Virus record (IMG/VR): IMGVR_UViG_3300045581_000334
Span: 12,695-76,694 of that record
Strand: one strand, 5' to 3'
DNA length: 64,000 nucleotides
Source of the DNA: a virus
Shown here: positions 25,605 through 48,991 of the stretch, piece after piece
How positions within the stretch are numbered: position 1 is the stretch's first letter
How the letters are laid out: every line of letters begins with the position of its first letter
The notes under the pieces: generated by a model
The model's database searches: none
The model's input: only the letters and a program-made list of their open reading frames with translations
Told to the model about the DNA's origin: nothing
Program-made: the position numbers and the translations under genes

Positions 25605-26171
25605 TCAGGCAAACAGTTCTGGGTTTAGTTTAGTAGGAAGCTCTGTTGTGCCTCTAACAAATACAGTGGTGAAATATCTTATATCGTCACTTAGGACGGG
25701 AAGTGAGCCGTGAACTATATGTCCTCCATGTATAAATAGCGAATTAGCTTTTGGCTTTATGGTAATTCCTAGATCAGGGTAGTCCAATTCTCCACCCTCA
25801 TAGTCATCATTAAAATATAAACACAATCCATACCCAATATAATAGTCTATATCAGTTCTCCACTGATCAGCATGATGCTGTATAAAATCTCCCTTTTTAT
25901 ACCTTTGTAAAATCATACCAGTAGGATAATACGAATAAGATTCAAATAAGGATTCCATTTTTTTATTTGCTCTTGAGAATACATTTTCTTCTTCAAAGAC
26001 TATCTGTTTGCCAAACCAGAAATCGGGAATTTGATTTTTAACTCTCATCTCTTCATTATTCCAGTCTTCTTCAGAAAAACTGTTTATAATTTTTTTTACT
26101 TCTTCAAATTCTGAGTCTGTTAGGAAATTTTCTACCTCATAAACATCATCGTATATCTTGTTTATCTTCAT
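25605..26171 (-). CDS. 2OG-Fe(II) oxygenase (prolyl 4-hydroxylase-like)
   Basis: HAD...YFNDDYEGGEL...HGS...RY. Confidence 0.88.
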   Translation of the reverse strand: MKINKIYDDVYEVENFLTDSEFEEVKKIINSFSEEDWNNEEMRVKNQIPDFWFGKQIVFEEENVFSRANKKMESLFESYSYYPTGMILQRYKKGDFIQHHADQWRTDIDYYIGYGLCLYFNDDYEGGELDYPDLGITIKPKANSLFIHGGHIVHGSLPVLSDDIRYFTTVFVRGTTELPTKLNPELFA

Positions 26172-26177
26172 AAATTC

Positions 26178-26846
26178 CTAATTATATTTATTATTATTTA
26201 TGTGACTTATCTCTATATGGTTTATATTTACATGACTAGGTAAAGATCCTACCCATCTAATTGTTTCAGCCATATCTGCAGCAGTTAAAGCGTTATCCTT
26301 TTTCTCTAACTGTGTGTCTATTGTTCCTGGGCACACTTCCGTAACCTTAATTCCATATGCTGGGAATTCCATTCTCATAGTGTCTATTAATCCCATTTCT
26401 CCACGTTTAGCATTTGAATAATTTCCGCTTCCACGGTATGGTACTTTTCCACACAAGGAAGTGACAAAAACAATAGTCGGAGATTCAGAATTTTTCATTG
26501 CTGGTACAAACAATTGAGACAAATACATTGGTCCAGAAACATTGATATCATACGCTCTTCTAAAGTTTTCCATAGTTTCGTTTATTAGATATGTTGGCCC
26601 TGCTCCACCGCCAGCATTATTTACTAATAGATCTAAAGTTATATCTTTATATTTATCGTAGAATGCCTTGATGGCTTTTTCATCAGTAATGTCTAAGCTG
26701 TATGTCTCTATGTTGTCAGAAGCAATCTCTGCCAACTTAGATAAATTACGTGACACAGCAATAACTTTGTACCCATTTTGGGATAAAACTTTTACTGTTT
26801 CGTAACCTACGCCCTTGCTAGCTCCAGTAACTATGGCGGTTTTCAT
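26178..26846 (-). CDS. Short-chain dehydrogenase/reductase
   Basis: TGASKGVG, NNAG and YSNAK motifs. Confidence 0.92.
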   Translation of the reverse strand: MKTAIVTGASKGVGYETVKVLSQNGYKVIAVSRNLSKLAEIASDNIETYSLDITDEKAIKAFYDKYKDITLDLLVNNAGGGAGPTYLINETMENFRRAYDINVSGPMYLSQLFVPAMKNSESPTIVFVTSLCGKVPYRGSGNYSNAKRGEMGLIDTMRMEFPAYGIKVTEVCPGTIDTQLEKKDNALTAADMAETIRWVGSLPSHVNINHIEISHINNNKYN

Positions 26847-26848
26847 AT

Positions 26849-27547
26849 TTACATCGTTGGATTATTTACTGGCTCCATGGTTCTATACCAATGAAGTGGT
26901 ACCATATACTTAAATCCGCTCTTAACTAAGTGTGCGGTGTGATGATATGGTGGAGATGATGGGAATATAATAACGCTCCCTGCCTCTGGCTTAATGGCTA
27001 TAGTAACTCTGTTTCCATCTTTTGCTACGGCAAAATCTTCTTCTGGCTTGCCCTGTATGATTGGTGCGTCTGGAGATTCAATGGTAAATGAAAGTTCTCC
27101 ACCCTCGTAATCATCGTTTAAATAAAACACAAGTGAGTACTTTAATCTAGTGTCTCCTTCTTGCTGATCAAAGTGTGCTCCCATGTAGGTTCCTGGGCTA
27201 TACTTCTTAATATCAAATAATGGGAAATTGATGGGAGTTTCGTTGTCTCCGTGAGCTTCCGCATAATCTTTACAAACGGCATAGAAGGCATCCATGATGG
27301 TGTTATAAATGTATCCAGCCTTATTGTCTGTTGTTTTAATTACTCTCTCTTCATCAGATGGGTTTACAGTTTTTTGAGCTCCGTAAAGATACATCTCTCC
27401 ACTACAGGCTGTCCACTCATTCCATTTAGTAACTGAATTACCCCATTCCTCATTTTCTGTGGAATCAATCATCTCCACAAACTTTTTTGGATCTGGTATT
27501 ACGTTCTTGTAATAGTAAACATTTTCTTCTAATATTTCTTTTTCCAT
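26849..27547 (-). CDS. 2OG-Fe(II) oxygenase (prolyl 4-hydroxylase-like)
   Basis: HFD...YLNDDYEGGEL...HTA...KY. Confidence 0.9.
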   Translation of the reverse strand: MEKEILEENVYYYKNVIPDPKKFVEMIDSTENEEWGNSVTKWNEWTACSGEMYLYGAQKTVNPSDEERVIKTTDNKAGYIYNTIMDAFYAVCKDYAEAHGDNETPINFPLFDIKKYSPGTYMGAHFDQQEGDTRLKYSLVFYLNDDYEGGELSFTIESPDAPIIQGKPEEDFAVAKDGNRVTIAIKPEAGSVIIFPSSPPYHHTAHLVKSGFKYMVPLHWYRTMEPVNNPTM

Positions 27548-27548
27548 G

Positions 27549-28292
27549 TCAATCTCCTATTTTATATTTCTTACCATTTGGATCAATCTTATAACCTTCT
27601 TTAAGAAGATCTTGCCACTCCGCCTTTTCTACTGCTTGCTGATCTCTAATCTTCTGCATTTCTTCTGCCCAAGCATCTCTGACTTCTTGTGGATAATCTG
27701 ATTCTTCTCTATCGTCCCAGAAAGACCCTAGAGTGTATCTAACTCCTGAAGTTATCATACTTACTTCATGCATGTTATTAAATCCGCCATCAAATGCAGC
27801 TAACAATCCAGTCTTAGGCTGTATGCTAATATCTTGTGATGGAAACTTAAGCATACCACCCTCAAAATTATCATTCAAATATAAGAAGGCTGCGTATCTA
27901 CTTCTTGCAAATGGCCCAGTGTTTCCTTTTTCATCTGTGTTGTCTGAATGTATTCTTGCATATGCTCCAGGCTCCCACTTTTGAGTATGGTATCCAATTT
28001 GAACTACCTTTTTAGGATCTAGTCCATGAACTGAAGCAACAGCATCTATAATTCCAGATCTAATTTGAGAAAATATGTCTGACTCCAAGCCAAACTCTTC
28101 TATCTCTGGATCTCCATCTTGTGGCAAAACCGATGAGTAAGATTCATAAAAAGAAATTGGAGTCCATGATAGTTTTTCTGTTTCAGCCTGCTTGTCTAAA
28201 ACTTTTATTAAAGCAGCGCACTGCTCTTCAGTTAAAAAGTTTTCATAAAGGACTATGTCCTTAGTCAATCTATTTTGATTATTTAAATTCAT
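27549..28292 (-). CDS. 2OG-Fe(II) oxygenase (prolyl 4-hydroxylase-like)
   Basis: HSD...YLNDNFEGG...HEV...RY. Confidence 0.9.
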   Translation of the reverse strand: MNLNNQNRLTKDIVLYENFLTEEQCAALIKVLDKQAETEKLSWTPISFYESYSSVLPQDGDPEIEEFGLESDIFSQIRSGIIDAVASVHGLDPKKVVQIGYHTQKWEPGAYARIHSDNTDEKGNTGPFARSRYAAFLYLNDNFEGGMLKFPSQDISIQPKTGLLAAFDGGFNNMHEVSMITSGVRYTLGSFWDDREESDYPQEVRDAWAEEMQKIRDQQAVEKAEWQDLLKEGYKIDPNGKKYKIGD

Positions 28293-29200
28293 TTTATCCT
28301 CACTAATCCATCTAGGTTTTTCTTTTGTACCTTTTCCTGGTACTCTGCCATTATTTCACCTTGCATTGATATCCACTTATCTCTGCCATACTTCTCTTCA
28401 TTCTCAAACCATTCTTTATCGCCAAGGTCATACTTTTGCCAATACATTCTAGTAAAAAGTTTTTCTCCGTTTAAGTTATTTGTAACTCCGTGTAGGTATA
28501 CCTTTCCATCTTCTGTAAGAATTTCTGGGTGCCCTGAAGGAAAAACTAAAAAATCTCCAGCTTTAGGCTTGTAAGAAAATATTTTATTATTAATAATAAA
28601 TTCAACTTCTCCGCCATCATAGTCGTCGTTTAGGTATGTAGTAGTTGTAATTGCAAATTTATATCCTGGGGTCTTAATAGGCTCTCTAATAAAGTCAGAA
28701 TGATAATTCATTGCCAATGGGTGTCCTTTTCCTGCATCATCAAAATACTTGCATAGGCTTGGACCAGTCCATCTCCAGGTGCTTATCTCAGAAACTACAG
28801 ATTGCTCAGAGTTATAAGTTTCTGAGTACAAGGAGTTTACTGGATTAGAGACATGAGTAGGATCAACATCTAGGTTAAACCTATTAATAAAATCATTATT
28901 TACTTTATGAAAACCTTTAACTAGCTCACAAATAAAATATTTTTGATCTCTTCCCTTATCGGTTGTAGGCTCTTCATGATCCCAGGCAAACTTCATTTCT
29001 CTATCGGATTTGTTAAAATTTATTCCGAACTTTTCTACTTTTTCTCCAAATTCGTACCATGGTTTCCAGTCTTCAAATATTCCTGTTTCTGAACTTCCAA
29101 TATCTTTAGCTATCCTATACATCTTGTCAACATCTTCTAATACGCCGTTATAAACTATAATATATGGATATATTTCTTCGCTATACATTCTTATCTCCAT
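28289..29200 (-). CDS. 2OG-Fe(II) oxygenase (prolyl 4-hydroxylase-like)
   Basis: HSD...YLNDDYDGGEV...HGV...K. Confidence 0.88.
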   Translation of the reverse strand: MEIRMYSEEIYPYIIVYNGVLEDVDKMYRIAKDIGSSETGIFEDWKPWYEFGEKVEKFGINFNKSDREMKFAWDHEEPTTDKGRDQKYFICELVKGFHKVNNDFINRFNLDVDPTHVSNPVNSLYSETYNSEQSVVSEISTWRWTGPSLCKYFDDAGKGHPLAMNYHSDFIREPIKTPGYKFAITTTTYLNDDYDGGEVEFIINNKIFSYKPKAGDFLVFPSGHPEILTEDGKVYLHGVTNNLNGEKLFTRMYWQKYDLGDKEWFENEEKYGRDKWISMQGEIMAEYQEKVQKKNLDGLVRIK

Positions 29201-29909
29201 CTATTAAAACCCTATAGTACTTCTTATCAGGTTCTGGCTTAACTTCTCCAGTATGTTCTAATATAGTCCAAAAGAATGGAACTGTATATCTTATGCTACC
29301 TTTTATTTCTGTTACACCGTGAATATAATTCATATCTCCAGGGAAAAAGTAGGCAGCACCTCTTTTAGGCTTAAATTGAATTCCTTGATTAGGGAAATAT
29401 AACTCTCCGCCTTCATAATCATCATTTAAATAAAACAAGCTAGCTAAATCATACCATGGAAAATCATTGGACAATCCAGCATCTGGCCCTTCATGTAATT
29501 CTTTGTCTGCGTGTGGTCTTTGGAATTGACCAGGTAGCCACCTAACGATTGTCTGCCCAGTTGGCTGAGCTTTTACCTTATAAAAATCTTCTATGATTGG
29601 CTGTAGTCTTTGAAAGAGTCCAACTATAACTGGAACAATGTTTGGATCATTTTTGTTTAAAGATGGAGCACTACAAACTCTGTCTTTCCAATAACTTGAA
29701 TCATATATAACTGTTCCATTTTCATTTACATGATCTTCTGTGTAGTCCCAAATTGTAATCTTTTTAGCAGCTGACTCAAGGAAGTTTATCTCATCTTCAG
29801 TCATAAAATTTTCTAGTTCAACAATCATATCCTTGCTGTACCCAAAAAATCCAGATGGGGTTATTGATTTCGGTGCGTGTAAGTGTATGTCTTTGTTTAC
29901 AATTTCCAT
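29181..29909 (-). CDS. 2OG-Fe(II) oxygenase (prolyl 4-hydroxylase-like)
   Basis: HAD...YLNDDYEGGELYF...HGV...RY. Confidence 0.9.
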   Translation of the reverse strand: MEIVNKDIHLHAPKSITPSGFFGYSKDMIVELENFMTEDEINFLESAAKKITIWDYTEDHVNENGTVIYDSSYWKDRVCSAPSLNKNDPNIVPVIVGLFQRLQPIIEDFYKVKAQPTGQTIVRWLPGQFQRPHADKELHEGPDAGLSNDFPWYDLASLFYLNDDYEGGELYFPNQGIQFKPKRGAAYFFPGDMNYIHGVTEIKGSIRYTVPFFWTILEHTGEVKPEPDKKYYRVLIDGDKNV

Positions 29910-29915
29910 ACTTAA

Positions 29916-30635
29916 TTATACCATTCCATTAGAAGCAGTATTATCATTTACAGATAACCTCAAAGTCTTAGTTTCATGAGAACCTAAAGAATTACCGTTC
30001 TCATCTACAGCGTCTCTATACCAATCCGTCCAGTTTCCAGAAGAATTTATAACCTGTGCGGCTTCTCCATAAGACATATTAGCATTGTGTCTAGACCTGT
30101 CATCATCTCTATACTGAACGATCTCTATAACTGAATTGTTTAAGTTACTCAAAGATATTGGAATTATTGTAGCTATTGGAGTACCAGCCTTGATTACAGT
30201 TTCTACATTTGCCTTTTTAGCTTTGATTGCTAAAGGCAATGGATTATCATAAAAAGATGTGCTCATTAAATTAGACATTGTTTCAAAATCTTCATTAAAA
30301 TAATTTACTGGATTTATTGTCCATATACTAACATCTGGGTCTGTCCTAAAAACCATACCTGTATTTAGACTTATTGTAGACTGTCCTCGTCCAGAGTAAG
30401 CATCAGCAGGTTTAGTTATCTTTACATGCTGGTCTGTCTGATCATTTATTCCATCCCAAGTAAAAATTATATCTTCTGTGCAGGATAAGTTCCATCCTAC
30501 TACGTTGGCCTGTGTTACTGGAAAACATCTGTAGGCATGCTTTTCTGAGGTAACATCCATCCATTCTCTTTTAATAGACATTGGATCTATTTTAAACTTA
30601 CACCCTTGCATTTTTTCTACCGATATATTAATCAT
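29916..30635 (-). CDS. DUF6065-like protein
   Basis: REWMD...HAYRCFPVTQANVVGW and KAGTPIATIIP motifs. Confidence 0.7.
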   Translation of the reverse strand: MINISVEKMQGCKFKIDPMSIKREWMDVTSEKHAYRCFPVTQANVVGWNLSCTEDIIFTWDGINDQTDQHVKITKPADAYSGRGQSTISLNTGMVFRTDPDVSIWTINPVNYFNEDFETMSNLMSTSFYDNPLPLAIKAKKANVETVIKAGTPIATIIPISLSNLNNSVIEIVQYRDDDRSRHNANMSYGEAAQVINSSGNWTDWYRDAVDENGNSLGSHETKTLRLSVNDNTASNGMV

Positions 30636-31318
30636 TATTCATTATCCCACTTTGGATCATACATATCTGGCGTATGATATTTTTTGCTATAATCAAGCAT
30701 TGTAACTATTGAATGTTTAGTTCCACTAGTTACTGGCATAGCTCTATGAGGATACATAAAATTAGAAGGAAATATATACAGGTCTCCAGCTTTTGGCTTT
30801 ATGTTTAAACCCTGAAGTCTAAAAAATAGCTCTCCGCCTTCGTAATCATCGTTTGGGTATGCTACAAGTGACACAGTACAGTTATAAGAATATCCATGAT
30901 CATGATGTTCTTGAAAGTGTTGGCCTGGTCCATATTTAATAAAATTAAAAGCTTCCCAATATTTTAATGGCATAATGTTAAACATTCTACGATAATCTTC
31001 AACTGCAGGATTTTGGGCATCATACACATCTTGCCACAAAGACTGTAGCTTTAATGATTCTTCGCTTTTATCTGCCTCTATGTCTGTTTTTTTAAACTTA
31101 AAATCTACACAATCTCTATAGTCTGGCATAAGTTGTTGGTATCCAACATAAGCTGGATTCCAGTGGTATCTTTTGCCATCTGGAGATAATTGTCCCCATG
31201 GGGCAACCTCTCCCAATACGCTGTCAAGTCTGTTTATAACATCAATTTCTGGTTTTATAACGTCTCTATAAACAACAATTCCTGTAGCCACTTCTTCTTT
31301 GCTAGACCATGTTTGCAT
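30635..31318 (-). CDS. 2OG-Fe(II) oxygenase (prolyl 4-hydroxylase-like)
   Basis: HHD...YPNDDYEGGEL...FPSNFMYPH...K. Confidence 0.9.
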   Translation of the reverse strand: MQTWSSKEEVATGIVVYRDVIKPEIDVINRLDSVLGEVAPWGQLSPDGKRYHWNPAYVGYQQLMPDYRDCVDFKFKKTDIEADKSEESLKLQSLWQDVYDAQNPAVEDYRRMFNIMPLKYWEAFNFIKYGPGQHFQEHHDHGYSYNCTVSLVAYPNDDYEGGELFFRLQGLNIKPKAGDLYIFPSNFMYPHRAMPVTSGTKHSIVTMLDYSKKYHTPDMYDPKWDNE

Positions 31319-32079
31319 TACTTGTACTCTCTTCTTGACCAGACATTCTTTATGTATACCCCACCGTCGGGAACCCTATACTTTTTCATGTTGTCATTCA
31401 TTTTAGCATAAATGTCATTTTGAGACAATAGCTCTATTTCACTTTCCCAATCTTCTCTTTTAAATGGGATAATTTGCATATATGGGGTTCCAGCTTTAAT
31501 TGTGCCTTCATATCCATCAACAACAAAAAATGGGAATGTTCCAGACAAATGAACTTTATCGTTATCTACAATCCCAGTAGTATTTAAAAATGGAAGATCG
31601 AATCTATTCATTGGTGTCATATATATACAGCTGTATCCTTCTGGAACCTCTAGACCCCAATCTGGCTGCCAAGCAAAGTGATACTTGTAGTAACCCTTTG
31701 GGTGCTCAAACTGTGGCATGGGTGGCCTTCTTGATACGAAGTCTCTGCAGTTTAATTCTGAAACCTTGACATCAATATTTCCCTGACTGTCTTTAAAAAA
31801 TGTTATGTCGCATGGTGTTTTTAAAACGTAACCTGTTGAGAACCCATCCATAATTGCTGGGCAAGCTTTCCAAGTTGGGATCTTGCCATAATCATCCTTA
31901 GTTCCTTCTTTTGGAAATGGACAAACCGCTTTAGGAGCTTTAAAATAATCTCCGTTTGGCATCTTAGCAAATCTGTCTGCCTCCTTGTACCACTTTGGCA
32001 TCACGGAGTGTGTTGTGGCAGGAGTTGACTTGCTATCTTTTTTTAACCAGGGCCTGAATGACCTAAAAATTATTTTCAT
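31318..32079 (-). CDS. DUF6065-like (dUTPase-like beta fold) protein
   Basis: PKWYK, KACP..MDG..TGY, PMNRFDLPF, GIVD.D and IKAGTP.MQIIPFKRE motifs. Confidence 0.65.
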   Translation of the reverse strand: MKIIFRSFRPWLKKDSKSTPATTHSVMPKWYKEADRFAKMPNGDYFKAPKAVCPFPKEGTKDDYGKIPTWKACPAIMDGFSTGYVLKTPCDITFFKDSQGNIDVKVSELNCRDFVSRRPPMPQFEHPKGYYKYHFAWQPDWGLEVPEGYSCIYMTPMNRFDLPFLNTTGIVDNDKVHLSGTFPFFVVDGYEGTIKAGTPYMQIIPFKREDWESEIELLSQNDIYAKMNDNMKKYRVPDGGVYIKNVWSRREYK

Positions 32080-32789
32080 TACTTATGACCGATTTCATTA
32101 ATGTCTGTCATAATAACAACACAATACTTAGTTCCCTCTTTCATTGGCAATGACGCATGTTCATAAATATAGTTTGATGGGAATATTGCAATATCTCCAA
32201 CTTTTGGGGTATGAATATGATTATCTAATCTTGGAAATTGTATCTCTCCACCCTCGTAGTCATCGTTAATATAAATTACTGCAGATACAGTACAATTATA
32301 TGCTGGCCCATGGTCGGCATGAATTCTAAAATGCTTACCTTCTCCTTCATACTTTACAAAGTTAAATGCTTCATAATATACAACATTTATCCCCCAGTAT
32401 CTTGCGTAATCATCAATACAAAATTTTAACTTCTCATAAATTTCATTATGTAAATCAATTAATGGAGCATTAAATTCATTTTTAGGGCCAAGGTTTTCTG
32501 GCTTAAATTTAAAATCTACGCAGTCCCTTGCCTTTTTAATCGGAACTACAGAATTTGTTACTTGAGCCTCTGACCATCTATATCTGGCCCCATTAGTTAA
32601 GTTGTCTTCAAGTATCTTTATATATCTTTCTGCGTCCTCTTTTGAAAAAGTATTATGATAAATGTTTAGACCTAATCCTGGATTAGTAGTTGTAATAGTA
32701 CTGTTAACTCTTCTTTCTGGCAGCCTATTAGAAGCTGTCTCAGATCTATCTTTATTAAACCAGTGGTCTTGTGGGTCTTGATAATTCAT
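32079..32789 (-). CDS. 2OG-Fe(II) oxygenase (prolyl 4-hydroxylase-like)
   Basis: HAD...YINDDYEGGEI...FPSNYIYEH...KY. Close paralogue of 30635..31318. Start moved to the ATG behind an AGGA RBS. Confidence 0.9.
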   Translation of the reverse strand: MNYQDPQDHWFNKDRSETASNRLPERRVNSTITTTNPGLGLNIYHNTFSKEDAERYIKILEDNLTNGARYRWSEAQVTNSVVPIKKARDCVDFKFKPENLGPKNEFNAPLIDLHNEIYEKLKFCIDDYARYWGINVVYYEAFNFVKYEGEGKHFRIHADHGPAYNCTVSAVIYINDDYEGGEIQFPRLDNHIHTPKVGDIAIFPSNYIYEHASLPMKEGTKYCVVIMTDINEIGHK

Positions 32790-32846
32790 TGTTTTTCCTA
32801 CCTTTACAAACACATTGTATCATAATAAATATTTTATTATGTTTAA

Positions 32847-33893: not shown

Positions 33894-33894
33894 C

Positions 33895-34365: not shown

Positions 34366-34429
34366 TATTAATTACCCTTCTAATAATAAGAGGTTATAAT
34401 AATAACACATTAAAAAAAATGTGTCAATA

Positions 34430-34972: not shown

Positions 34973-35070
34973 GTATCTATTATATCATTTTCATTATTAT
35001 TGTCAACTGAATCTGTGGGTCTATCATTACCTAATCCGACGTGATCAGCGCATCCACACATCCAACACAT
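34969..35070 (-). CDS. 33-aa peptide MCWMCGCADH... (not in the ORF track)
   Basis: ATG abuts the upstream TAA (TAAATG) and the stop overlaps the downstream start (ATGA). Confidence 0.6.
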   Translation of the reverse strand: MCWMCGCADHVGLGNDRPTDSVDNNNENDIIDT

Positions 35071-36129: not shown

Positions 36130-36130
36130 T

Positions 36131-37727: not shown

Positions 37728-37734
37728 GTTAAGA

Positions 37735-38358: not shown

Positions 38359-38359
38359 G

Positions 38360-39864: not shown

Positions 39865-42800
39865 TTAGGCTGACAAATCTCCAGCTAGCAACCAAGTATT
39901 TGTTGCTACTTTTGTTAATGTTGCCGATGAATAAGTTGTTCTTAACTTTAGCCCTGGTGTAGCTAGAATTGAAACTGTACCGTCTGCGGCTGCAAAACTT
40001 GCACCCGTTCCTGCAGATTGATAAAAATCAATTGAAGTTCCTACTGGGTAGGCTGTTGTTGAATTTGTTGGTACTGTTATTACATATGTTCCAGATACTG
40101 GTATTAATTGATCTCTTAATGAGAGTCCTCCAGTTGACAAATTGTATGCTGCTGAAATTGTTGTACCAATTGTAGTAAGTGAAGGAACGCCTTGTTTTGT
40201 CTGAGTTCCATCAGTAAATACTACGCCTGCAACTTCAACGTTATTTACTGCAAGATTGTCTAGAGATCCCTGTCCAAAATTTACAGTTGTTGCTGGCTCA
40301 TCTGCTACATCCTTGAAAATCTTCCACTTGGAATCAGAAACGTCTCTTACAATACCTGCGTGTTTTGCTGTGCCGTCTGTATATGCTACAACAAGACCAA
40401 GGTCTACGGTATTTGCCGCATTTTGATGAGCAAGCTGAACCATGTTATCTTCAATAACAATAGATGTTGAGCTTGCATTAAATGTTGTACCATTTACTGT
40501 TAAATTTCCGTCAACAGTCATATTGCCGTCAACTTCTAGGTTTCCAGTAAATGTTTGATTAGCAGCATTCTTATATGCTAATTGTGATGTATCAGAAATT
40601 CCGTGTACTGATGTTGTTGCTGAAGTATGAGATGTTACAGTAGAAGAAGCAGCCTTAGCATCAATCTGTGTTTGTACTGCTGAGGTTACTCCATCTAAAT
40701 ATCCTATTTCAGTTGAGCTAACATTTCCAACAGATGTTGTGGACGGAAGTACTACCGTACCAGTAAATGTTGGAGAAGCGATTGGTGCATAAGTTGAAGC
40801 AGCTGTTGCTGATGCAAGCTTAGTGTCAATCTGTGCCTGAATTCCAGAAGTCACTCCATCTAGATATCCAATTTCTGTTGAGCTAACATTTCCAATTGCT
40901 GTGGTGCCAGGAAGTGTTACCGTACCAGTAAATGTTGGGCCAGAAGAAGGAGCCTTGGATCCAAGATCTGATACCAGGTTGGCAATCTTAGACTGTTCAA
41001 TTTCTGCTGAAGCATTAATATCAGCATTTACAATTGTTCCATTTGCAATCTTTGCAGAAGTTACTGCTCCGTCATTAATTTTTTCAGTTGTTACAGCCAA
41101 GTCATTGATCTTGGCAGTTTCTACTGCCGAAGATGCTAATTGTGCTGCAGCAACTGCTGAGTCTGCAATTTTATCAGATGTTACCGCATCATTTGCAATT
41201 TTAGCTGTTGTAACATTTAAATCTGTAATTTTTACAGTAGTTACAGAATCTGCAGCAAGTTTATCTACTGTCACAGAAGTGTCTGCAATTTTTGCTGTAG
41301 ATACAGAACCTGCAGCAAGCTTATCGCTGGTTACAGATAAATCATTTATCTTTCCTGTAGTTACAGCCAAATCAACAATTTTTGCTGTAGAAACTGTATT
41401 GTCTGTTGGAGTTCTGGTATCAGACAAACGAGCATCATCTGTATACACAAGATTTGCTGTATTTGTTATACCATGTATGCTGGTTGTATCATCAGCATGT
41501 GATGTTAAAGCTGTCCCAGCAGTTGTTTCTGCAGCAGATTGAGCTGCTGATGCAGCATTATCTGCATAAGACTTGGTTGCCAAATCTGCAGTATTTGAAA
41601 TACCATGTACGCTAGTTGTGTCTGCGCTGTGATTGCTTAATTCTGTTGCTGCAACTGTGCCAACATTATCTGCATAAGCTTTTGTTGCAAGAAGAGAAGT
41701 ATCTGCTATTCCGTGAACATTATAAATAGTATTATTATGTCCAGTTAAATTAGACGATGCAGTATTCCCATATCCTTCTATTAAATTATCTACATATGCT
41801 TTATTGGTAGCATGCAAAGCTCCTACTGGATCGCCGCTTAGTGTTAAAGCTCCAGTCATCGTATCCCCAGCCTTAGAAACCTTAGTTCCAATGCTGTTGC
41901 TTACAGTAGTCGCAAAACTTGGATCGTCTCCAAGTGCTGCTGCCAACTCATTAAGAGTATTTAATGCAGCTGGTGAAGAATCTACTAAATCTGCAACCTT
42001 TTGGTCAGCGTATGCCTTAGCATCCACCTCAGCTTGATCTGCGTAAGCTTCATAAGCATTAGTAATTGCTGTTTCACGACCAGCAACATAAGCTTCATAA
42101 GCAGTGGTGATTGCTGTCTCACGAGCATCAGTGTAAGCTTTAGCATCTACTTCAGCTTGATCTGCGTAAGCTTGATAAGCGGTGGTAATTAACCCTTCAC
42201 GTGTATCTGTATAAGCTTTAGCATCTCCTTCTGCCTGATCTGCATAAGCTTCATAAGCAGTGGTGATTGCTGTCTCACGAGCATCAGTGTAAGCTTTAGC
42301 ATCTACTTCAGCTTGATCTGCGTAAGCTTTTGTAGCAAGGTCAGCTGTATTTGCTATACCATGTACGTTAGTTGAATCATTTTCGTGATTCGAAAGATTT
42401 GTTGCAACAGTTGTAAAGAATGTAGGGTCATCTCCAATTGCTGCTGCTAATTCATTTAAGGTATTTAATGCACCTGGTGCTCCATCTAGCATGGCAGTTA
42501 CTGCCGCATTTACTGCGTCATTAATTGCTTGAGTTGCTGTTAGCTCTTTCCAGTTTGCATTTGTGCTTGCAGGGGTTGATTGAAGCACATATGATGTTCC
42601 ATTGTCTGACTGAATTGCAATATCGCCTGGTTCAACAGTAAGGGCAAGACGAGCTGCTTGGTCTGCAACAGAATGAACTGTAATTTTTGCAAGTGGCGGC
42701 AAGTTCTGAGCTTTAATGTAGCCACTGGCATCTAATTGTGGCACTCCGTCTGGCTGGCCATAATCATCTGTAGTTAATGGTGTACCATCATTATTGACGA

Positions 42801-42957
42801 TAGCATAATCTAGATTTCTCCAGTTAGTTGAGCCATCACCAATCTTAATTCTATTTGTGTCTGTTTCAATAGCAAGCTCGCCTGCTGCTAATTGTGGATT
42901 TGCGTCATACCAATCTTGGTACTCGCCTCGTCTAAGTTGAATTCTTACTGTTGCCAT
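39865..42957 (-). CDS. Long tail fibre-like protein
   Basis: N-terminal IQLRRG...NPQLAAGE...KIGDG.T.W, two LNTLNELAAA-DDP motifs, 10-aa VTTAKIAD repeats and C-terminal PGLKLR...WLLAGDLS. Confidence 0.85.
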   Translation of the reverse strand: MATVRIQLRRGEYQDWYDANPQLAAGELAIETDTNRIKIGDGSTNWRNLDYAIVNNDGTPLTTDDYGQPDGVPQLDASGYIKAQNLPPLAKITVHSVADQAARLALTVEPGDIAIQSDNGTSYVLQSTPASTNANWKELTATQAINDAVNAAVTAMLDGAPGALNTLNELAAAIGDDPTFFTTVATNLSNHENDSTNVHGIANTADLATKAYADQAEVDAKAYTDARETAITTAYEAYADQAEGDAKAYTDTREGLITTAYQAYADQAEVDAKAYTDARETAITTAYEAYVAGRETAITNAYEAYADQAEVDAKAYADQKVADLVDSSPAALNTLNELAAALGDDPSFATTVSNSIGTKVSKAGDTMTGALTLSGDPVGALHATNKAYVDNLIEGYGNTASSNLTGHNNTIYNVHGIADTSLLATKAYADNVGTVAATELSNHSADTTSVHGISNTADLATKSYADNAASAAQSAAETTAGTALTSHADDTTSIHGITNTANLVYTDDARLSDTRTPTDNTVSTAKIVDLAVTTGKINDLSVTSDKLAAGSVSTAKIADTSVTVDKLAADSVTTVKITDLNVTTAKIANDAVTSDKIADSAVAAAQLASSAVETAKINDLAVTTEKINDGAVTSAKIANGTIVNADINASAEIEQSKIANLVSDLGSKAPSSGPTFTGTVTLPGTTAIGNVSSTEIGYLDGVTSGIQAQIDTKLASATAASTYAPIASPTFTGTVVLPSTTSVGNVSSTEIGYLDGVTSAVQTQIDAKAASSTVTSHTSATTSVHGISDTSQLAYKNAANQTFTGNLEVDGNMTVDGNLTVNGTTFNASSTSIVIEDNMVQLAHQNAANTVDLGLVVAYTDGTAKHAGIVRDVSDSKWKIFKDVADEPATTVNFGQGSLDNLAVNNVEVAGVVFTDGTQTKQGVPSLTTIGTTISAAYNLSTGGLSLRDQLIPVSGTYVITVPTNSTTAYPVGTSIDFYQSAGTGASFAAADGTVSILATPGLKLRTTYSSATLTKVATNTWLLAGDLSA
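42000..42330 (-). repeat. 66-nt tandem coding repeat (AYADQAEVDAKAYTDARETAITT)
   Basis: About 4-5 near-identical copies visible at DNA and protein level. Confidence 0.85.
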
Positions 42958-43391: not shown

Positions 43392-45002
43392 TTATGCTAT
43401 TAATGTTCCAGCAATTGTTACAGTGCTGTTGTTATTTAGAGTTGTTACTCTAATTCTAAAATGAGTTCCATCATGATCTGCTGTAATTGTTGACAAAGAT
43501 CCGTTTGTTCCAACAACTCCATATTCTGTCATATGAACATTATTGCTTGTATCTGAAGTTACAAGGATTTCAGATAACTCTGTGTGGGTACCATTTGCAA
43601 TTTTAACGGTGAATTTACCGCTCTTATAAGCTGTATGGTTCCATTGATAAGCAGTTACTGTACTAGCTGTAGGTACAGAGACTGTGGCTGCAACATTTTT
43701 AGCAACACCATTAAAGTCAATTGCTGCATATACTGGTTCTGCTACTGCATTACCAGCAAGTATTGCTCCGTCTGTATAAGAATTTGCTGAAGCAACTGCA
43801 TCAGATTCTGCTTGATCTACATACTGCTTTGTAGCTGCCTCAAGAGCATTTACTGGATCTGCATGTAGTACCAGAGCGCCAGTCATTGTTCCGCCAGCTG
43901 TTGCTAGCTTAGTTGCAATGCTGTTTGCTACTGTAGTAAAGTAATTTGCATCATCATTAATTGCTGCTGCAATTTCATTTAATGTATCAAGAAGTGCTGG
44001 GGCACCATCTACAAGAGCTGAAATTTGGCTGCTAACCCATGTCTTATCAGCAGTAACTGTTGTATCAATTGAGAATTCACCAGTTCCTGAATTGTATGAT
44101 AAACCATTACCAGCATTTACTGATCCACGAGCACGAGTATCTGTATAGTAAAGATTGGATGCACCCTCTTCAATATCATCTGTGTCTAAGGCATTTATTG
44201 CGCTATCTGTATAAGAAGCAGCGTTTCCTTCAGCTGTAGATGCTGCGCCATATGCATCATATGTATTTGCAGATACATTAATAATTCCGTCTGCGGCATT
44301 ATATGTTATTCCAGTTCCTGCAGATACTGCATTTCTTGCACGACCATTTGTAAAGTATAAATTAGATGAACCTTCTTCAATGTCATCTGAATCTAAAGCA
44401 TCTACTACTGTACTTACTGCATTATCGGCGTAGGTTTTTGTAGCAATTGTATTATCTACAGAAATTACACCTGTTGAGTTGTCATAGCTAATTCCTGTTC
44501 CGCCAGAAACTGCTTGACGAGCTCTTGTGTCAGTAAAGTATAAATTAGATGTTCCCTCTGCTAAATCATCAGTATCAGAATCTGCTACTCCGTTTTCAGC
44601 AGTAATTGTAAGACCAGCACCAGTGCCAGTAATTGTAATATTTGTTAAGTTAGCATTTGTTAATAAATCTGCTGCAGAAGTTTTAGCACGAGCATCCGTA
44701 AAATATTGATTTGTACCTTCTGCTAAATCACCAGTATCATGATTTGAAATATCTGAAACTGTACCTGTTACGTTACCAGTTAGATTTGCTGTAATTGTTC
44801 CAGCTGAAAAATTACCAGAACCGTCACGCTTAACAACCTTGTTAGCTTCATTTGCGGAGGTTGCGGTACCGCCAATAAGATCGATAATATAATTTTGATC
44901 ATCGGTCTTCTTTGTTAATATATCAAAACCGCCTACGGTAGCGCTACTTCCTTCAACTACCAGGCCATTTTTTACTCTAAAATTTTTATTTACTGTTGCC
45001 AC
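43392..45002 (-). CDS. Fibre/whisker-like virion protein
   Basis: Repeated DTDDLAEGxxNLYFTDxRAR units; LDTLNEIAAA motif. Confidence 0.8.
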   Translation of the reverse strand: MATVNKNFRVKNGLVVEGSSATVGGFDILTKKTDDQNYIIDLIGGTATSANEANKVVKRDGSGNFSAGTITANLTGNVTGTVSDISNHDTGDLAEGTNQYFTDARAKTSAADLLTNANLTNITITGTGAGLTITAENGVADSDTDDLAEGTSNLYFTDTRARQAVSGGTGISYDNSTGVISVDNTIATKTYADNAVSTVVDALDSDDIEEGSSNLYFTNGRARNAVSAGTGITYNAADGIINVSANTYDAYGAASTAEGNAASYTDSAINALDTDDIEEGASNLYYTDTRARGSVNAGNGLSYNSGTGEFSIDTTVTADKTWVSSQISALVDGAPALLDTLNEIAAAINDDANYFTTVANSIATKLATAGGTMTGALVLHADPVNALEAATKQYVDQAESDAVASANSYTDGAILAGNAVAEPVYAAIDFNGVAKNVAATVSVPTASTVTAYQWNHTAYKSGKFTVKIANGTHTELSEILVTSDTSNNVHMTEYGVVGTNGSLSTITADHDGTHFRIRVTTLNNNSTVTIAGTLIA

Positions 45003-45917: not shown

Positions 45918-46205
45918 TTACCACTTATTAAGTGGACATTTTGCATCTTTTAATTTAGTTTTTAAAAACATAAAGCATCCACATTGCTTACAGGTAGATG
46001 TTTCTTTTATTAATTCAGGGCAAGAAAGGCATGTATTAAATCTTTGTGACGACTCTTCTTCTGAAGATGTAGAAACTGATGGGTCAACTTTATGCCAGGG
46101 CATACCGTAATTATTAGATAAATTTAAAGCCTCTAAATCTTTTTCTATTTCATCAGGCTTTTTAGGCTCTAAAAAATACTCAGATAGATCTATACTGTTT
46201 TCCAT
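45918..46205 (-). CDS. Cys-rich small protein (DUF6171-like)
   Basis: RxxxCxxCP...CKxCGCxMxxK...CPLxKW. Confidence 0.7.
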   Translation of the reverse strand: MENSIDLSEYFLEPKKPDEIEKDLEALNLSNNYGMPWHKVDPSVSTSSEEESSQRFNTCLSCPELIKETSTCKQCGCFMFLKTKLKDAKCPLNKW

Positions 46206-46233
46206 AATTAAATTATATCATTCTGTAATATGT

Positions 46234-46998
46234 CTAGCAAGGGTAGTTTCCTCCTCCGCCTCCGCAAGATCTGACATCTGAAGTTATGCATGACCCAAAT
46301 CCTATAAATGTAGGAGAGGAACATATTTGATATGTTCCATCTGAACAAAGTTTCCTGGTTCCCTCATAAATTCCTTGATATGAGTCCTCGCCATTACATG
46401 TAGGAATAATAACTTGATATGGCTCGCAATTTCCACAACTAAAAGATTGGAATGATGGTGGGAAGAATGGCGGGAAGAATGGGAATGATGGTGGGAAGAA
46501 TGGCGGGAAGAATGGGAATGATGGTGGGAAGAATGGCGGGAAGAATGGGAATGATGGTGGGAAGAATGGCGGGAAGAATGGGAATGATGGTGGGAAGAAT
46601 GGTGGGAAGAATGGGAATGATGGTGGGAAGAATGGCGGGAAGAACGGTGCAAAGTAAGGTGGGAAGAACGGCGGGAAGAATGGGAAGTACGGCGGGAAGA
46701 ACGGTGGGAAGAACGGGAAGAATGGGAAGAACGGTGGGAAGAACGGCGGGAAGAATGGAGGCGCTACATATCTATAATAGACAAAAGGAACAGTATCTCC
46801 CAATAAAGAAACTGAGTTTTCTGAAACTCCTTGACTTTGAATTAAATTATCAAGATTAATATTTGCAGTATCTATATATGATTCTGTATAATTTAACCCT
46901 AAAGAATTTAAATCGTTTTTAGCTTGAGACCTAGATTTTCCAGATAAATTTGGAACATTTCTTTTTCTTCTTCCGTGTCTACCAAATAGACTAAACAT
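46234..46998 (-). CDS. PASTA-like + Phe/Pro repeat + Cys-rich tip protein
   Basis: VPNLSGKSRSQAKNDLNSLGL (PASTA-like), a ~105-aa F/P tract, then an 8-Cys C-terminus. Confidence 0.8.
   Translation of the reverse strand: MFSLFGRHGRRKRNVPNLSGKSRSQAKNDLNSLGLNYTESYIDTANINLDNLIQSQGVSENSVSLLGDTVPFVYYRYVAPPFFPPFFPPFFPFFPFFPPFFPPYFPFFPPFFPPYFAPFFPPFFPPSFPFFPPFFPPSFPFFPPFFPPSFPFFPPFFPPSFPFFPPFFPPSFPFFPPFFPPSFQSFSCGNCEPYQVIIPTCNGEDSYQGIYEGTRKLCSDGTYQICSSPTFIGFGSCITSDVRSCGGGGGNYPC
46446..46759 (-). repeat. Tandem coding repeats including 33-nt units (PFFPPFFPPSF)
   Basis: GGGAATGATGGTGGGAAGAATGGCGGGAAGAAT repeated about 5-6 times. Confidence 0.97.
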
Positions 46999-46999
46999 A

Positions 47000-48991
47000 T
47001 CATACGCTCAAATCGCCCATGGCGACCCAAGAATTTAATGCTCTTTTCACCAGGGTTGCTGAACTCCATTTAGCTCTCAATTTCAATCCAGGAGTTGCGT
47101 CTATGGTAAATCCAGATCCTCTAAGAGTAACCTGAGAATCACCTGTTTGTAATATATTAACCGTAAACCCTACTGCAAATGAAGATGAGTCTACTATGTC
47201 TAAAAATCCTCCGCCAGACATTTCAATAAGTTTTCCTAAATCTCCAGGAACAACAATATAGGTTGCTGCCTGTGGATTTCTTACTGTAAGCTTATCAAGC
47301 TTAGTGTCAAGTGCTGTTTGTGTGGCAGTTGAAACTGGTTTGTTAGCATCAGATGTATTGTCTACATTTTCAAGACCAACCATTGATTTTGTAATTCCAG
47401 AAACTGTACCAGTAAAGGTCGGAGAAGATAGTGGAGCATAAGTAGCAATTGCGTTGGATTGAGTCAAGTATGTAGAAGAAGCTAAAGAAGAATCTAATTT
47501 ATTTCCTATAGCATTACTTATTGTTGTAGCGTAATTAGGATCATCTCCTAATGCTGCCGCCAACTCATTAAGAGTATTTAAAGTTTCTGGAGCGGAGTCT
47601 ACAAGATTAGATATTGCAGTATTGACATAAGTTTCAGTAGCATATCCAGTCAAGCTAGGTATTACTGGCTTATCCGTTAAATCATTATAGCTAGTTATAA
47701 TCTCTGTATCTCTTGCAATTGAATCTGGAATTTGAATGTCTGGTATCTTTGCGTTTCCGTCTAATGTTGCAACTCCATCTTGAACTCCTCTTTGGGATAA
47801 TGGAATAAACTCACCAGTTGTATTAGACAAGTTAAATGCTAAGTCGTCTAATTGTTCTTGAACTGAACTTGTTGTGCCGCTTAGTCTTTCTACATCTATA
47901 GATGTTAAATTAGCAGAAGGTAGAGTGTGCCACTCTGTATCATAATCGATTGCAGAAGATTTTATTAAAAATTGTCCAGCAGTTCCACCTTCTGATACGC
48001 CTGGTCCAGATTCACCTTGAATGCCTTGTGGGCCTTGTAAACCTTGCTCACCCTGAATTCCTTGTGGCCCTTGTAATCCTTGCTCACCCTGAATTCCTTG
48101 TTGACCTTGAATACCTTGTGGACCAGGTTCGCCTTGCTCTCCTTGAATACCTTGTGGACCCTGGTCTCCTTGTGGACCCTGAATTCCTTGTAATCCTTGT
48201 GGTCCAATTTCTCCTTGTATCCCTTGAGGTCCCTGTGGGCCAACTTCACCCTGAATACCTTGTTCTCCTTGGATTCCTTGCGGTCCTTGAGGTCCTTGTG
48301 GTCCAACAATTTGTCCAACATTATTCCATAGAGATCCGTCCCAAACATAAAGATCTCCGTTATCTTGATTAATATAACTATCACCAATTACATTACCTGT
48401 ATTAGGTAAAGAGGTTTCATTAGTTACAGATCCCTTTAATACTATAGATGTTCCAGCAGAGCCTTGTATTCCTTGCTCTCCCTGAATTCCTTGTGGTCCT
48501 TGAGGTCCCTGTGGGCCAACTTCACCCTGAATACCTTGTGGGCCCTGAATGCCTTGTGGACCAGATTCACCTTGTTCGCCTTGAATTCCTTGCGGTCCTT
48601 GAATTCCTTGTAATCCTTGTGGTCCCTGTAAACCTTGTTCACCTTGTGGCCCCTGCGGTCCTGGTATTCCTTGAGTGCCACCTGCTGGTCCCGCTGGACC
48701 TGCTGGGCCTTCTGGACCAAGGGAAACTTCTACCCAGTATGTGCCATCATAAACATAAAGTTTAGCGTCATCATTGTCGTACCAGATTTTTCCTTCATAA
48801 GATATTTCTGGAGATGGCAGTGTTGAACTTACATGTGCAAATGCTTGTGCACCTAAATCCTGCCATTGATTTCCTGAGTAATATCTTGCTTTTTGAGATA
48901 CTGTATTAAAATACAGATCTCCCTCAGAGGCAGATAAAGGGTCAAACTCTAGTCCAGATAAGTTTAATGGGACTTTAAATTTACGAGCCAC
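47000..48991 (-). CDS. Collagen-like tail fibre protein
   Basis: Two (G-x-Q)n collagen tracts, LNTLNELAAA motif and C-terminal PGLKLR...WVAMGDLS. Confidence 0.9.
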   Translation of the reverse strand: MARKFKVPLNLSGLEFDPLSASEGDLYFNTVSQKARYYSGNQWQDLGAQAFAHVSSTLPSPEISYEGKIWYDNDDAKLYVYDGTYWVEVSLGPEGPAGPAGPAGGTQGIPGPQGPQGEQGLQGPQGLQGIQGPQGIQGEQGESGPQGIQGPQGIQGEVGPQGPQGPQGIQGEQGIQGSAGTSIVLKGSVTNETSLPNTGNVIGDSYINQDNGDLYVWDGSLWNNVGQIVGPQGPQGPQGIQGEQGIQGEVGPQGPQGIQGEIGPQGLQGIQGPQGDQGPQGIQGEQGEPGPQGIQGQQGIQGEQGLQGPQGIQGEQGLQGPQGIQGESGPGVSEGGTAGQFLIKSSAIDYDTEWHTLPSANLTSIDVERLSGTTSSVQEQLDDLAFNLSNTTGEFIPLSQRGVQDGVATLDGNAKIPDIQIPDSIARDTEIITSYNDLTDKPVIPSLTGYATETYVNTAISNLVDSAPETLNTLNELAAALGDDPNYATTISNAIGNKLDSSLASSTYLTQSNAIATYAPLSSPTFTGTVSGITKSMVGLENVDNTSDANKPVSTATQTALDTKLDKLTVRNPQAATYIVVPGDLGKLIEMSGGGFLDIVDSSSFAVGFTVNILQTGDSQVTLRGSGFTIDATPGLKLRAKWSSATLVKRALNSWVAMGDLSV

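Follow-up and report, generated by a model that had tools for sequence, protein, structure and literature searches.

Phe/Pro-repeat proteins, P4H-like oxygenases and DUF6065 proteins form a conserved gene unit in phages

Proteins with long Phe/Pro repeats, P4H-like oxygenases and DUF6065 proteins constitute a conserved unit in phages. The uncultured aquatic phage studied here (IMG/VR record IMGVR_UViG_3300045581_000334, positions 12,695 to 76,694, a stretch of 64,000 nucleotides referred to below as the window) encodes two fibre-region proteins with Phe/Pro-rich tracts of 105-136 residues, near eight P4H-like oxygenases. The unit is read here as a conserved module with which phages hydroxylate a virion appendage after translation, with a probability of about 0.5. 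A preliminary description, made from the letters alone, had proposed a modification system in this region. Its core of repeat, oxygenase and DUF6065 genes is supported, but its inclusion of radical SAM (rSAM), PLP, TylF and sulfotransferase-like genes, and of a RiPP-like product, is not. All genes that it listed were confirmed on the minus strand at the positions given, and the block is indeed flanked by RNR and fibre genes on one side and the portal (21844-23424) on the other.

FFPP1 (38360-39838, minus strand) is a 492-aa protein consisting of a basic N-terminal leader, FN3 domains, an F/P/Y tract and a C-terminal Hint/BIL-like domain. The tract, previously put at about 135 residues, is an unbroken 136 aa (aa 200-335, window 38834-39241 by translation) built from FFPP, FFP and YFP units, and contains 73 F, 57 P, 5 Y and, as the sole other residue, one A. 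The reading frame is supported by the in-frame FN3 before the tract (Pfam fn3, E 3e-9) and the in-frame Hint domain after it (aa 343-492, window 38363-38812). When 13 homologous C-termini were combined into a profile, it matched the bacterial intein-like domain 2lwy (E 1.7e-11) and also inteins. As in the Hedgehog and BIL Hint domains, the FFPP1 domain is C-terminal, starts with Cys1 and has no C-extein; it differs in that Gln replaces the block-B His and the sequence ends ...VIS, without a terminal His-Asn, whereas some homologues keep the His and end in His-Asn-Lys. Lys directly precedes the Hint Cys in FFPP1, and Lys is the last residue in 50 of 57 relatives in which the tract reaches the C-terminus. 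The tract is extremely hydrophobic, with a basic residue at its end in many relatives.

The second repeat protein and the collagen fibre reported upstream were both found. FFPP2 (46234-46998, minus) has 254 aa, with a basic leader, a PASTA-like head (a sub-threshold Pfam match), a 105-aa F/P/S/Y tract (aa 79-183, window 46450-46764) and then a Cys-rich tip. The FFPP proteins contain 15-21% Pro and 18-19 PP dipeptides, compared with 0.7-6.9% Pro in the other window fibres. A small Cys-rich DUF6171 protein is encoded at 45918-46205 (minus; Pfam PF19668, E 1.9e-6). Genes of this family follow 20 of 52 Cys-tipped FFPP genes, against 1 of 57 in which the tract runs to the end, and on this sequence evidence DUF6171 genes are partners of those FFPP genes that encode a Cys-rich tip.

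All seven P4H-like oxygenases proposed for the block were matched by Pfam PF13640: oxyA (25605-26171), oxyB (26849-27547), oxyC (27549-28292), oxyD (28289-29200), oxyE (29181-29909), oxyF (30635-31318) and oxyG (32079-32813), all minus strand. An eighth, oxyH (55661-56314, plus; PF13640 E 4e-9), lies outside it. The HxD..H motif and the 2OG-binding K/R are kept in all eight, the latter as R in oxyE, and the closest solved sequences are B. anthracis P4H, LH3, mimivirus L230, P3H1 and PBCV-1 P4H. The structure model of oxyE (pLDDT 89.9) gave as its best fold matches PBCV-1 vCPH (PDB 5c5t, Foldseek E 1.1e-10), Chlamydomonas P4H, B. anthracis P4H and PHD2, and it also matched the algal P4H with a (Ser-Pro)5 peptide and human C-P4H-II. 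By sequence and model, the oxygenases thus look like active peptidyl-prolyl hydroxylases. The oxyE type is the most widely retained beside FFPP genes, and is also found fused to DUF6065 in cellular proteins. The SDR (26178-26846, minus) was recognised as adh_short by Pfam; it occurs in 28 of 47 long window-clade loci and in none of 48 from the distant clade, so that the later oxidation step suggested beforehand finds partial support.

A virus-encoded P4H acting on virus-encoded Pro-rich repeats is described for PBCV-1 (Eriksson et al. 1999, as reported in PMC9301287). That system has a single enzyme and a eukaryotic host, whereas the window has 7-8 diverged paralogues with DUF6065 partners, an aromatic/Pro polymer and a predicted activity. 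The PBCV-1 Pro-rich repeats are charged units, Pro-Ala-Pro-Lys. The plant and algal enzymes (Chlamydomonas P4H-1, PDB 2jig and 3gze, also a fold match of oxyE) hydroxylate polyproline-II repeats of structural surface proteins; their repeats are of the extensin Ser-Pro type, of different chemistry from those in the window, and in plants the Hyp is subsequently glycosylated, whereas no glycosyltransferase was recognised in the window block. Mimivirus L230 and LH3, matched by oxyF at E about 1e-3, set a precedent for virus-encoded 2OG hydroxylation of a collagen-like protein of the virus, but their target is lysine and a glycosyltransferase is fused to them, and the window collagen fibre would be a poor P4H substrate.

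Of the three DUF6065-like proteins named at the outset, one (29916-30635, minus) is a Pfam match (PF19541, E 1.8e-28); the other two, of 253 aa (31318-32079, minus) and 201 aa (37122-37727, minus), are paralogues by BLASTP with no Pfam match. In the model of the first (pLDDT 92.3) the fold is dUTPase-like, matching dUTPase structures at Z 10.6 and with a Foldseek E of 7e-5, and is extended by helices at the C-terminus. The family conserves the motif RDWMD..T..HAY.C.P, and neither dUTPase motifs nor membership of the dUTPase sequence family was found in these proteins with Pfam. Cellular DUF6065 fusions include P4H-like domains of the oxyE/oxyC type, JmjC/Cupin_8 hydroxylases, an Stf0 sulfotransferase and, in P0223, a DUF6171-like tail. 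Cellular DUF6065 genes had neither a P4H neighbour nor an FFPP tract, and the pair therefore has other substrates elsewhere.

The expected co-occurrence of (FFPP)n reading frames with oxygenase and DUF6065 clusters was borne out. The DNA pattern alone identified at least 120 viral loci. For 75 FFPP ORFs the downstream sequence extended 2.5 kb or more; in 65 of them an oxygenase or DUF6065 gene started within 3 kb downstream on the same strand, and in 69 one was present anywhere in the locus. With DUF6065 as the bait, 581 and 497 relatives were obtained from IMG/VR, and an FFPP gene lay upstream in 27/27 and 34/35 of the loci with at least 5 kb of upstream sequence, in two deep clades; loci picked by the FN3 head were linked in 68/68. 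The enzyme block without repeat genes, and the reverse, were thus sought with three baits and the linkage held. Tract and enzymes co-occur in hundreds of phage fragments, although many of the sampled loci are close relatives, so that fewer independent events lie behind these counts than the numbers suggest. The DUF6065 proteins of the second clade, which includes a complete 210-kb genome with direct terminal repeats, are 21-29% identical to that of the window, and the contigs have a portal only 22% identical to the window's or none like it; the unit therefore crosses phage backbones. Streptomyces phage Genie2, a backbone relative (portal 59% identical), has neither oxygenases nor tract. A scan of 596 Gb of prokaryote genomes gave 15 matches to the pattern. 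Six of these were real tracts, all in phage-like contexts: four loci themselves contain oxygenase or DUF6065 genes, the fifth tract is on the contig of one enzyme-bearing locus, and the sixth is approximately 100 bases from the locus end. Four contigs, 26-48% complete, in which long FN3 proteins contain short FFPP linkers, yielded no PF13640 gene, and scattered PF13640 genes occur in cyanomyoviruses without FFPP. The joint occurrence of tract and enzymes makes the tract the leading substrate candidate for these phage oxygenases.

Linkage indicates shared function or shared expression and stops short of proving an enzyme-substrate pair, as fibre genes are linked too. Homologues of the window fibres, namely the 1030-aa Mtd_N fibre (39865-42957, minus; Pfam Mtd_N) and a 536-aa fibre sharing domains with other fibres (43392-45002, minus), both upstream of FFPP1, precede FFPP genes in most loci; a 106-aa ORF lies between these two. 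Upstream of FFPP2 are the collagen-like fibre (47000-48991, minus; Pfam Collagen, E 1.6e-28) and a bactofilin-like beta-helix protein (49002-50456, minus; Pfam Bactofilin). Alternatively, the array might modify these other virion proteins, or host proteins, and the FFPP proteins would then be hydrophobic stalks or linkers that stay unmodified and simply belong to the common tail-fibre module. Arrays are linked to fibre genes at about the same frequency as to FFPP genes, a collagen-like fibre stands between FFPP and array in some distant-clade loci, the Syn9 array follows fibre genes without an FFPP tract, and collagen-like and tail-collar proteins have been proposed as substrates of co-encoded bacterial dioxygenases (Iyer et al. 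2010, PMC2938197). We nevertheless consider this unlikely: the usual immediate upstream neighbour of the array is the FFPP gene rather than a fibre gene, the window fibres are Pro-poor (0.7-2.5%), just 2 of the 59 G-X-Y triplets in the collagen-like fibre carry Pro at Y, and collagen repeats are missing from most loci.

Between FFPP1 and the array lies an insert of eight genes or ORFs (32847-38358, minus; Pfam, NCBIfam). Besides the 201-aa DUF6065-like gene it holds a GMP-reductase/IMPDH-like gene (32847-33893) and a ferritin-like gene (33895-34365; Pfam Ferritin E 0.0013, 19.2 bits, below the 24.5-bit cut-off), both passed over previously, a Cys/Met-type PLP enzyme (35071-36129), an rSAM/SPASM protein (36131-37198) and a TylF methyltransferase (37735-38358), all minus strand. 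A 33-aa Cys-rich ORF is also present. The 180-aa protein at 34430-34972 (minus), formerly called sulfotransferase-like, gave only a sub-threshold Sulfotransfer_4 match (E 0.017); a clearer sulfotransferase is encoded outside the block, at 57755-58384. Among related loci the arrangement recurs only in contig IMGVR_UViG_3300013131_002986 (L122/L325). The PLP, TylF, sulfotransferase-like, ferritin-like and GMP-reductase-like genes occur in one contig among 47 long window-clade loci, and rSAM in two; none of the six was found in 48 distant-clade loci. The insert with the rSAM, PLP, TylF, ferritin-like and GMP-reductase-like genes is lineage-specific and does not belong to the conserved core, and the methylation and sulfation once envisaged have no comparative support. 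The idea that rSAM/SPASM and tailoring enzymes turn the repeat into released, RiPP-like peptides draws on the rSAM/SPASM gene, the Cys-rich ORF and the methyltransferase beside FFPP1. Besides the rarity of these genes, the rSAM score is far under every curated NCBIfam maturase cut-off and the supposed precursors are large multidomain fibre-region proteins of 250-500 aa, and we regard this idea as most improbable.

A related tandem dioxygenase array was described in Synechococcus phage Syn9 (gp41-gp54) by Iyer, Abhiman, de Souza and Aravind in 2010 (PMC2938197), who proposed metabolite synthesis, with halogenated or hydroxylated products, and no substrate protein. Syn9 gp43 is homologous to the window's 253-aa DUF6065-like protein (BLASTP E 1e-9; hhalign 92%), and the array directly follows tail-fibre genes in both phages. 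Syn9 differs in having two tryptophan halogenases and a JmjC (MINA-type) member, absent from the window, and Gly-rich proteins as array neighbours; no FFPP tract was found there, and the tract-enzyme pairing is therefore not universal. A small-molecule or nucleotide pathway, in auxiliary or secondary metabolism, with FFPP adjacency as inherited gene order, would suit the nucleotide-enzyme fold of DUF6065, the RNR gene after the array in many relatives, the GMP-reductase-like, PLP, rSAM, TylF and ferritin-like additions in the window, and the TauD-like and glutathione-peroxidase genes of distant arrays. It is rather improbable, given that the oxygenases are closest in sequence and fold to peptidyl-prolyl and lysyl hydroxylases, DUF6065 falls outside the dUTPase sequence family, the apparently metabolic genes are not retained along with the array, and FFPP linkage persists across phage backbones, which inherited order alone would not predict.

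Action on the host during infection, for instance by a membrane-active Pro/Phe polymer combined with hydroxylation of host translation factors, is a non-virion role that we judge very doubtful. Bacterial P4H homologues modify EF-Tu, and PDB 5v7y is among the oxyE fold matches; the tract's hydrophobicity and frequently basic end, and a conserved basic leader of no known role, would also fit. Against this, FN3/Ig-like heads and a place within fibre modules are typical of virion proteins, and no link of the enzymes to host factors was found.

For the hydroxylation module we infer the following scheme, including the tract as substrate, the atoms hydroxylated, the DUF6065 role, the Hint cleavage and the virion location. 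FFPP1 and FFPP2, each with a basic leader, an FN3 or PASTA-like head and an (FFPP/FFP)n tract, would be produced late, with the fibres. The Fe(II)/2-oxoglutarate P4H-like battery would hydroxylate prolines in the polyproline-like tract, separate paralogues probably targeting distinct positions or ring carbons and possibly Phe/Tyr beta-carbons. The DUF6065 proteins, with their dUTPase fold, may be partners dedicated to certain oxygenases, helping to handle the substrate or acting in a subsequent step, and the window-clade SDR may oxidise a newly made hydroxyl. The FFPP1 Hint domain may cut at Lys342|Cys343, giving a Lys-ended tract as in most relatives, or transfer the chain to a nucleophile. 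The oxygenase/DUF6065-type array has been known from cyanophage Syn9 since 2010; of its pairing with FFPP tracts we found no description in the literature. The outcome of the proposed scheme would be a Pro/aromatic stalk, chemically decorated and attached to the tail apparatus, that serves in adsorption.

Linkage between the Phe/Pro tract and the enzyme array was examined from three independent baits: a nucleotide pattern covering 3.5 repeats of FFPP, the DUF6065 protein, and the FN3 head of FFPP1 (38360-39838, minus strand, 492 aa), one of the window's two repeat proteins. The repeat pattern matched at least 120 viral loci, at which the genes follow a stereotyped order of fibre, FFPP gene, an optional DUF6171 gene, and then the tandem oxygenase/DUF6065 array. 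Among FFPP ORFs followed by 2.5 kb or more of sequence, 65 of 75 have a same-strand array gene at most 3 kb downstream. DUF6065 as bait gave 581 relatives in the clade of the window proteins and 497 in a distant clade (21-29% identity), and an upstream FFPP gene was present in 27/27 and 34/35, respectively, of the loci reaching far enough. With the FN3 head the linkage was seen in 68/68, in a sample that contained no Pro-poor variant. The preliminary description had proposed that F/P-repeat proteins, P4H-like oxygenases and DUF6065 belong together, and all three baits bear this out. Judged by these sequence comparisons, the tract and its enzyme array are a real, widespread and conserved phage module, with a median of seven oxygenases (range 1-11) and 0-3 DUF6065 genes. 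A complete genome of 210 kb in the distant clade lacks any portal resembling that of the window; the unit is thus common to unrelated phage backbones.

Just six real FFPP tracts were found in 596 Gb of prokaryote genomes, all in phage-like contexts. Four of the loci hold oxygenase/DUF6065 genes, a fifth shares its contig with one, and the sixth tract lies about 100 bases from the end of its locus. The prokaryote-genome (MAG) matches come from four phyla and resemble phage contigs caught up in the binning. The Streptomyces phage Genie2, which has a related backbone, contains neither the oxygenases nor an FFPP tract, and no oxygenase was seen on four incomplete contigs whose long FN3 proteins carry short FFPP linkers.

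The record holding the window is 76.7 kb long in IMG/VR, with a completeness of 64% as estimated by CheckV. Portals of Streptomyces BE-cluster phages are 59% identical to the window portal (21844-23424), and in both the genes are arranged as RNR ... 587-aa protein, 114-aa protein, portal, protease, capsid. Measured against that backbone, RNR (51616-53550) and the 587-aa gene (23829-25592) are separated by about 26 kb of fibre and enzyme genes. All the genes of interest in this block are on the minus strand. In the direction of transcription they are a bactofilin-like gene, the collagen fibre, FFPP2 (46234-46998, 254 aa), DUF6171 (45918-46205) and two small genes; then a 536-aa fibre, a 106-aa gene, a 1030-aa Mtd_N fibre and FFPP1; then a TylF methyltransferase, a 201-aa DUF6065-like protein, rSAM/SPASM, a PLP enzyme and a 33-aa ORF; then a 180-aa protein, a ferritin-like protein, a GMP-reductase-like protein, oxyG, a 253-aa DUF6065-like protein and oxyF; and finally DUF6065, oxyE, oxyD, oxyC, oxyB, an SDR and oxyA. 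A protein with the actinophage GP88 domain is encoded at the window end (63523-63999, E 7e-35). Portal, synteny and GP88 domain together only suggest an actinobacterial host; the GC content of about 37%, taken with the GP88 domain and the BE-cluster likeness, hints at a low-GC aquatic one.

The tract of FFPP1 consists of 136 residues (73 F, 57 P, 5 Y and 1 A) and that of FFPP2 of 105. The reading frames of both are fixed, because folded domains flank the tract on either side. A profile of 13 homologous C-termini matched the BIL domain 2lwy (E 1.7e-11) as well as many inteins, and by this measure the C-terminal region of FFPP1 is a predicted Hint/bacterial-intein-like domain; as a single sequence its Hint match was marginal and sub-threshold. 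Cys343, the position-1 nucleophile of the domain, comes after Lys342, straight after the tract. The block-B His and the C-terminal His-Asn were sought in the FFPP1 domain, where Gln occupies the aligned position and the protein ends in ...VIS. Three homologues (at loci L116, L188 and L052) keep both the block-B His and the terminal HN, three (L031, L061 and L078) keep the HN and not the His, and three more (L082, L099 and L100) keep the His and not the HN. Among relatives whose tract runs to the end of the protein, 50 of 57 have a C-terminal Lys, and in FFPP1 a Lys immediately precedes the Hint Cys. The DUF6171 gene follows 20 of 52 Cys-tipped FFPP genes and 1 of 57 of the tract-to-end type.

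Nearly all FFPP proteins, in the window and at the related loci, begin with a short conserved basic leader irrespective of the domain that comes next (eg MA..KK.GKKSQASNDFLEP, MA.KDSGGKKP..PTIG and ..G.RKN.VPNIVG). In the window the leaders run from 39838 downward (FFPP1) and from 46998 downward (FFPP2), and they could be a docking or recognition element. At related loci, some 18-27 of about 143 distinct FFPP genes need a +1 frameshift between the leader and the remainder (L237:5190-5330, L055:3380-3460, L018 on the minus strand, and 16 more loci). At the site, Ala-Ala (GCN GCN) or Lys/Val invariably precedes CGG A, with GGA in the +1 frame; the zero frame meets a stop soon after, and unshifted homologues read GCN GCN GGN. 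Because synonymous variation is seen in the flanking codons, the shift looks programmed rather than an assembly error. Both window genes are unshifted.

The seven oxygenases of the block (oxyA-oxyG, 25605-32813) and an eighth outside it (oxyH, 55661-56314, plus strand) score 28.7-53.6 bits against PF13640, for which the Pfam gathering cut-off is 27. The seven are 25-45% identical to one another. The iron triad H138, D140 and H191 is invariant across the eight aligned paralogues, and the basic residue for the 2OG C5 carboxylate, K or R, lies about 10 residues past the last His; triad and basic residue are likewise kept in 39 oxyE homologues. By sequence search, the solved structures that come closest are those of peptidyl-prolyl and lysyl hydroxylases. 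The sole paralogue modelled, oxyE (pLDDT 89.9), has a double-stranded beta-helix fold closest to peptidyl-prolyl hydroxylases, with best matches to 5c5t, 2jig/3gze, 5hv0, PHD2 and 7zsc (TM 0.5-0.66). The matches named are PBCV-1 vCPH, PiuC/PKHD-type oxygenases, B. anthracis P4H, PHD2, human C-P4H-II and an algal P4H, which has also been solved with a (Ser-Pro)5 peptide. All eight proteins are described here as P4H-like, ie putative prolyl hydroxylases.

The second component of the array is DUF6065. The protein at 29916-30635 matches Pfam DUF6065 (PF19541) with E 1.8e-28. Those at 31318-32079 (253 aa) and 37122-37727 (201 aa) have no Pfam match even at E<=10, and BLASTP paralogy (E 4e-7 and 7e-28, respectively) is all that joins them to the family. 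The DUF6065 model (pLDDT 92.3) is a dUTPase-like beta-barrel (VIA-align Z 10.6-10.0 over 115-127 residues; Foldseek E 7e-5). No dUTPase family was found in the Pfam scan of the protein at E<=0.01, and the invariant residues (R23, W25, M26, H33, A34, Y35, C37, P39, N44, G47, N111 and G218) do not make up the familiar dUTPase motifs. As modelled, DUF6065 is thus a protein of dUTPase-like fold without dUTPase sequence membership. An ESM Atlas search gave no usable match, and a profile search gave about 2,081 clusters at 50% identity. Seven cellular proteins (P0202, P0222, P0239, P0189, P0225, P0235 and P0244) fuse DUF6065 to P4H-like domains of the oxyE/oxyC type, in the domain order seen in the window as DUF6065 followed by oxyE. 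In four others (P0210, P0240, P0258 and P0259; eg from Bordetella avium and Allosphingosinicella) it is fused to JmjC/Cupin_8 hydroxylases, in P0192 to an Stf0 sulfotransferase, and in P0223 to a DUF6171-like tail. Through these fusions DUF6065 is connected with two superfamilies of protein hydroxylase. In Pseudomonadota, the cellular loci of DUF6065 have neither P4H nor repeat neighbours. At three of four such loci the stand-alone gene divergently adjoins one for a YbaK/ProX-type aminoacyl-tRNA editing domain (L314:8796-9296, L315:8750-9271 and L319:8901-9443), which may be mere shared ancestry of the genomes.

Proline is concentrated in FFPP1 and FFPP2, the fibres being Pro-poor, and this, together with immediate adjacency to the array, makes the tract the best candidate for the substrate. 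We put the probability that the tract is the substrate of the oxygenase array at about one half. The collagen fibre has 59 G-X-Y triplets, of which 20 have Pro at X and 2 have it at Y; it is unlikely to be the main substrate of a C-P4H-type activity, since the X-Pro-Gly pattern is absent bar those 2 of 59 Y positions.

The preliminary description also envisaged hydroxylated tracts that are then methylated or sulfated, or RiPP-like products. Among the loci compared, the TylF, PLP, ferritin-like, GMP-reductase-like and 180-aa genes are confined to the window and a single sister contig (L122/L325). The rSAM is present in 2 of 47 window-clade loci, and the SDR in 28 of 47 versus 0 of 48 distant-clade loci. 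On this distribution the first five genes and the rSAM are placed outside the conserved core. As tailoring genes so rarely accompany the tract and array, neither the RiPP reading nor the methylation and sulfation steps find comparative support. The precursors, at 254 and 492 aa with folded domains, are not of the short leader-core kind, and the window rSAM/SPASM falls below all NCBIfam maturase cut-offs; the RiPP reading was rejected. In NCBIfam the rSAM, TylF, ferritin-like and 180-aa proteins all went without a specific name. A 33-aa Cys-rich ORF between the PLP and 180-aa genes (34969-35070, minus) had no match in a family search.

A sulfur/iron/purine-flavoured gene set is found at 32847-37198, 56311-57153 and 57755-58384, comprising a cystathionine-gamma-lyase/synthase-like PLP enzyme, ferritin-like and GMP-reductase/IMPDH-like proteins, a luciferase-like (alkanesulfonate-type) monooxygenase and sulfotransferase-like proteins, every one below curated equivalog cut-offs. 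That the ferritin-like gene supplies iron for the eight Fe(II) enzymes is speculation. Distant-clade arrays also carry glutathione-peroxidase homologues and a TauD-family dioxygenase (L199:11058-11675, L199:15141-15962, L237:9265-10023 and L237:13480-14097); dealing with peroxide released by uncoupled turnover of the oxygenases would be a fitting role for a peroxidase.

In cyanophage Syn9, ten dioxygenases stand in a tandem array together with two halogenases and a dUTPase-fold Cys protein (Iyer et al. 2010, PMC2938197). Like the window array it is a tandem run of several 2OGFeDOs plus a dUTPase-fold Cys protein, and it comes after tail-fibre genes. Syn9 gp43 is a DUF6065-like homologue by our own profile and BLASTP, although the Pfam DUF6065 model misses it. 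Unlike the window, Syn9 has no FFPP tract, which argues against universality of the pairing, and its tryptophan halogenases and JmjC/MINA member have no counterpart Pfam family in any window block gene. In other cyanomyoviruses the PF13640 genes are scattered and unaccompanied by an FFPP tract. The array belongs to a known but unexplained kind, of which it is a variant; what is new is the Pro/Phe polymer paired with it, which is also a testable candidate substrate. A search of 50,697 GenBank phage records found neither DUF6065 nor any close relative of oxyE, which places the module in uncultured phages only. The literature searched, including that on phage hydroxyproline and freshwater actinophage oxygenases, yielded no paper on DUF6065 or on FFPP-oxygenase pairing.

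A fuller reading, which we consider improbable as a whole, is that the paralogues multi-hydroxylate (FFPP)n, on the two prolines (at C3 and C4) and on Phe/Tyr (at the beta-carbons), with DUF6065 as a new partner or follow-up enzyme. The greasy chain would be converted to an extensin-like or mussel-adhesive-like polyhydroxylated polyproline rod, a virion material without precedent, which the Hint domain would ligate through the rod's C-terminus and by which abundant aquatic phages would adhere to their hosts.

Few 'auxiliary' genes of aquatic phages are as abundant as those for P4H-type 2OG oxygenases. A 2022 study called the use of viral P4H cryptic (PMC9301287), and tandem dioxygenase arrays have stood unexplained since 2010 (PMC2938197). 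A candidate substrate encoded beside the enzymes makes phage P4H function testable and gives DUF6065, with some 2,000 clusters and no literature found, a functional context; it also raises the possibility that virions bear a new biomaterial.
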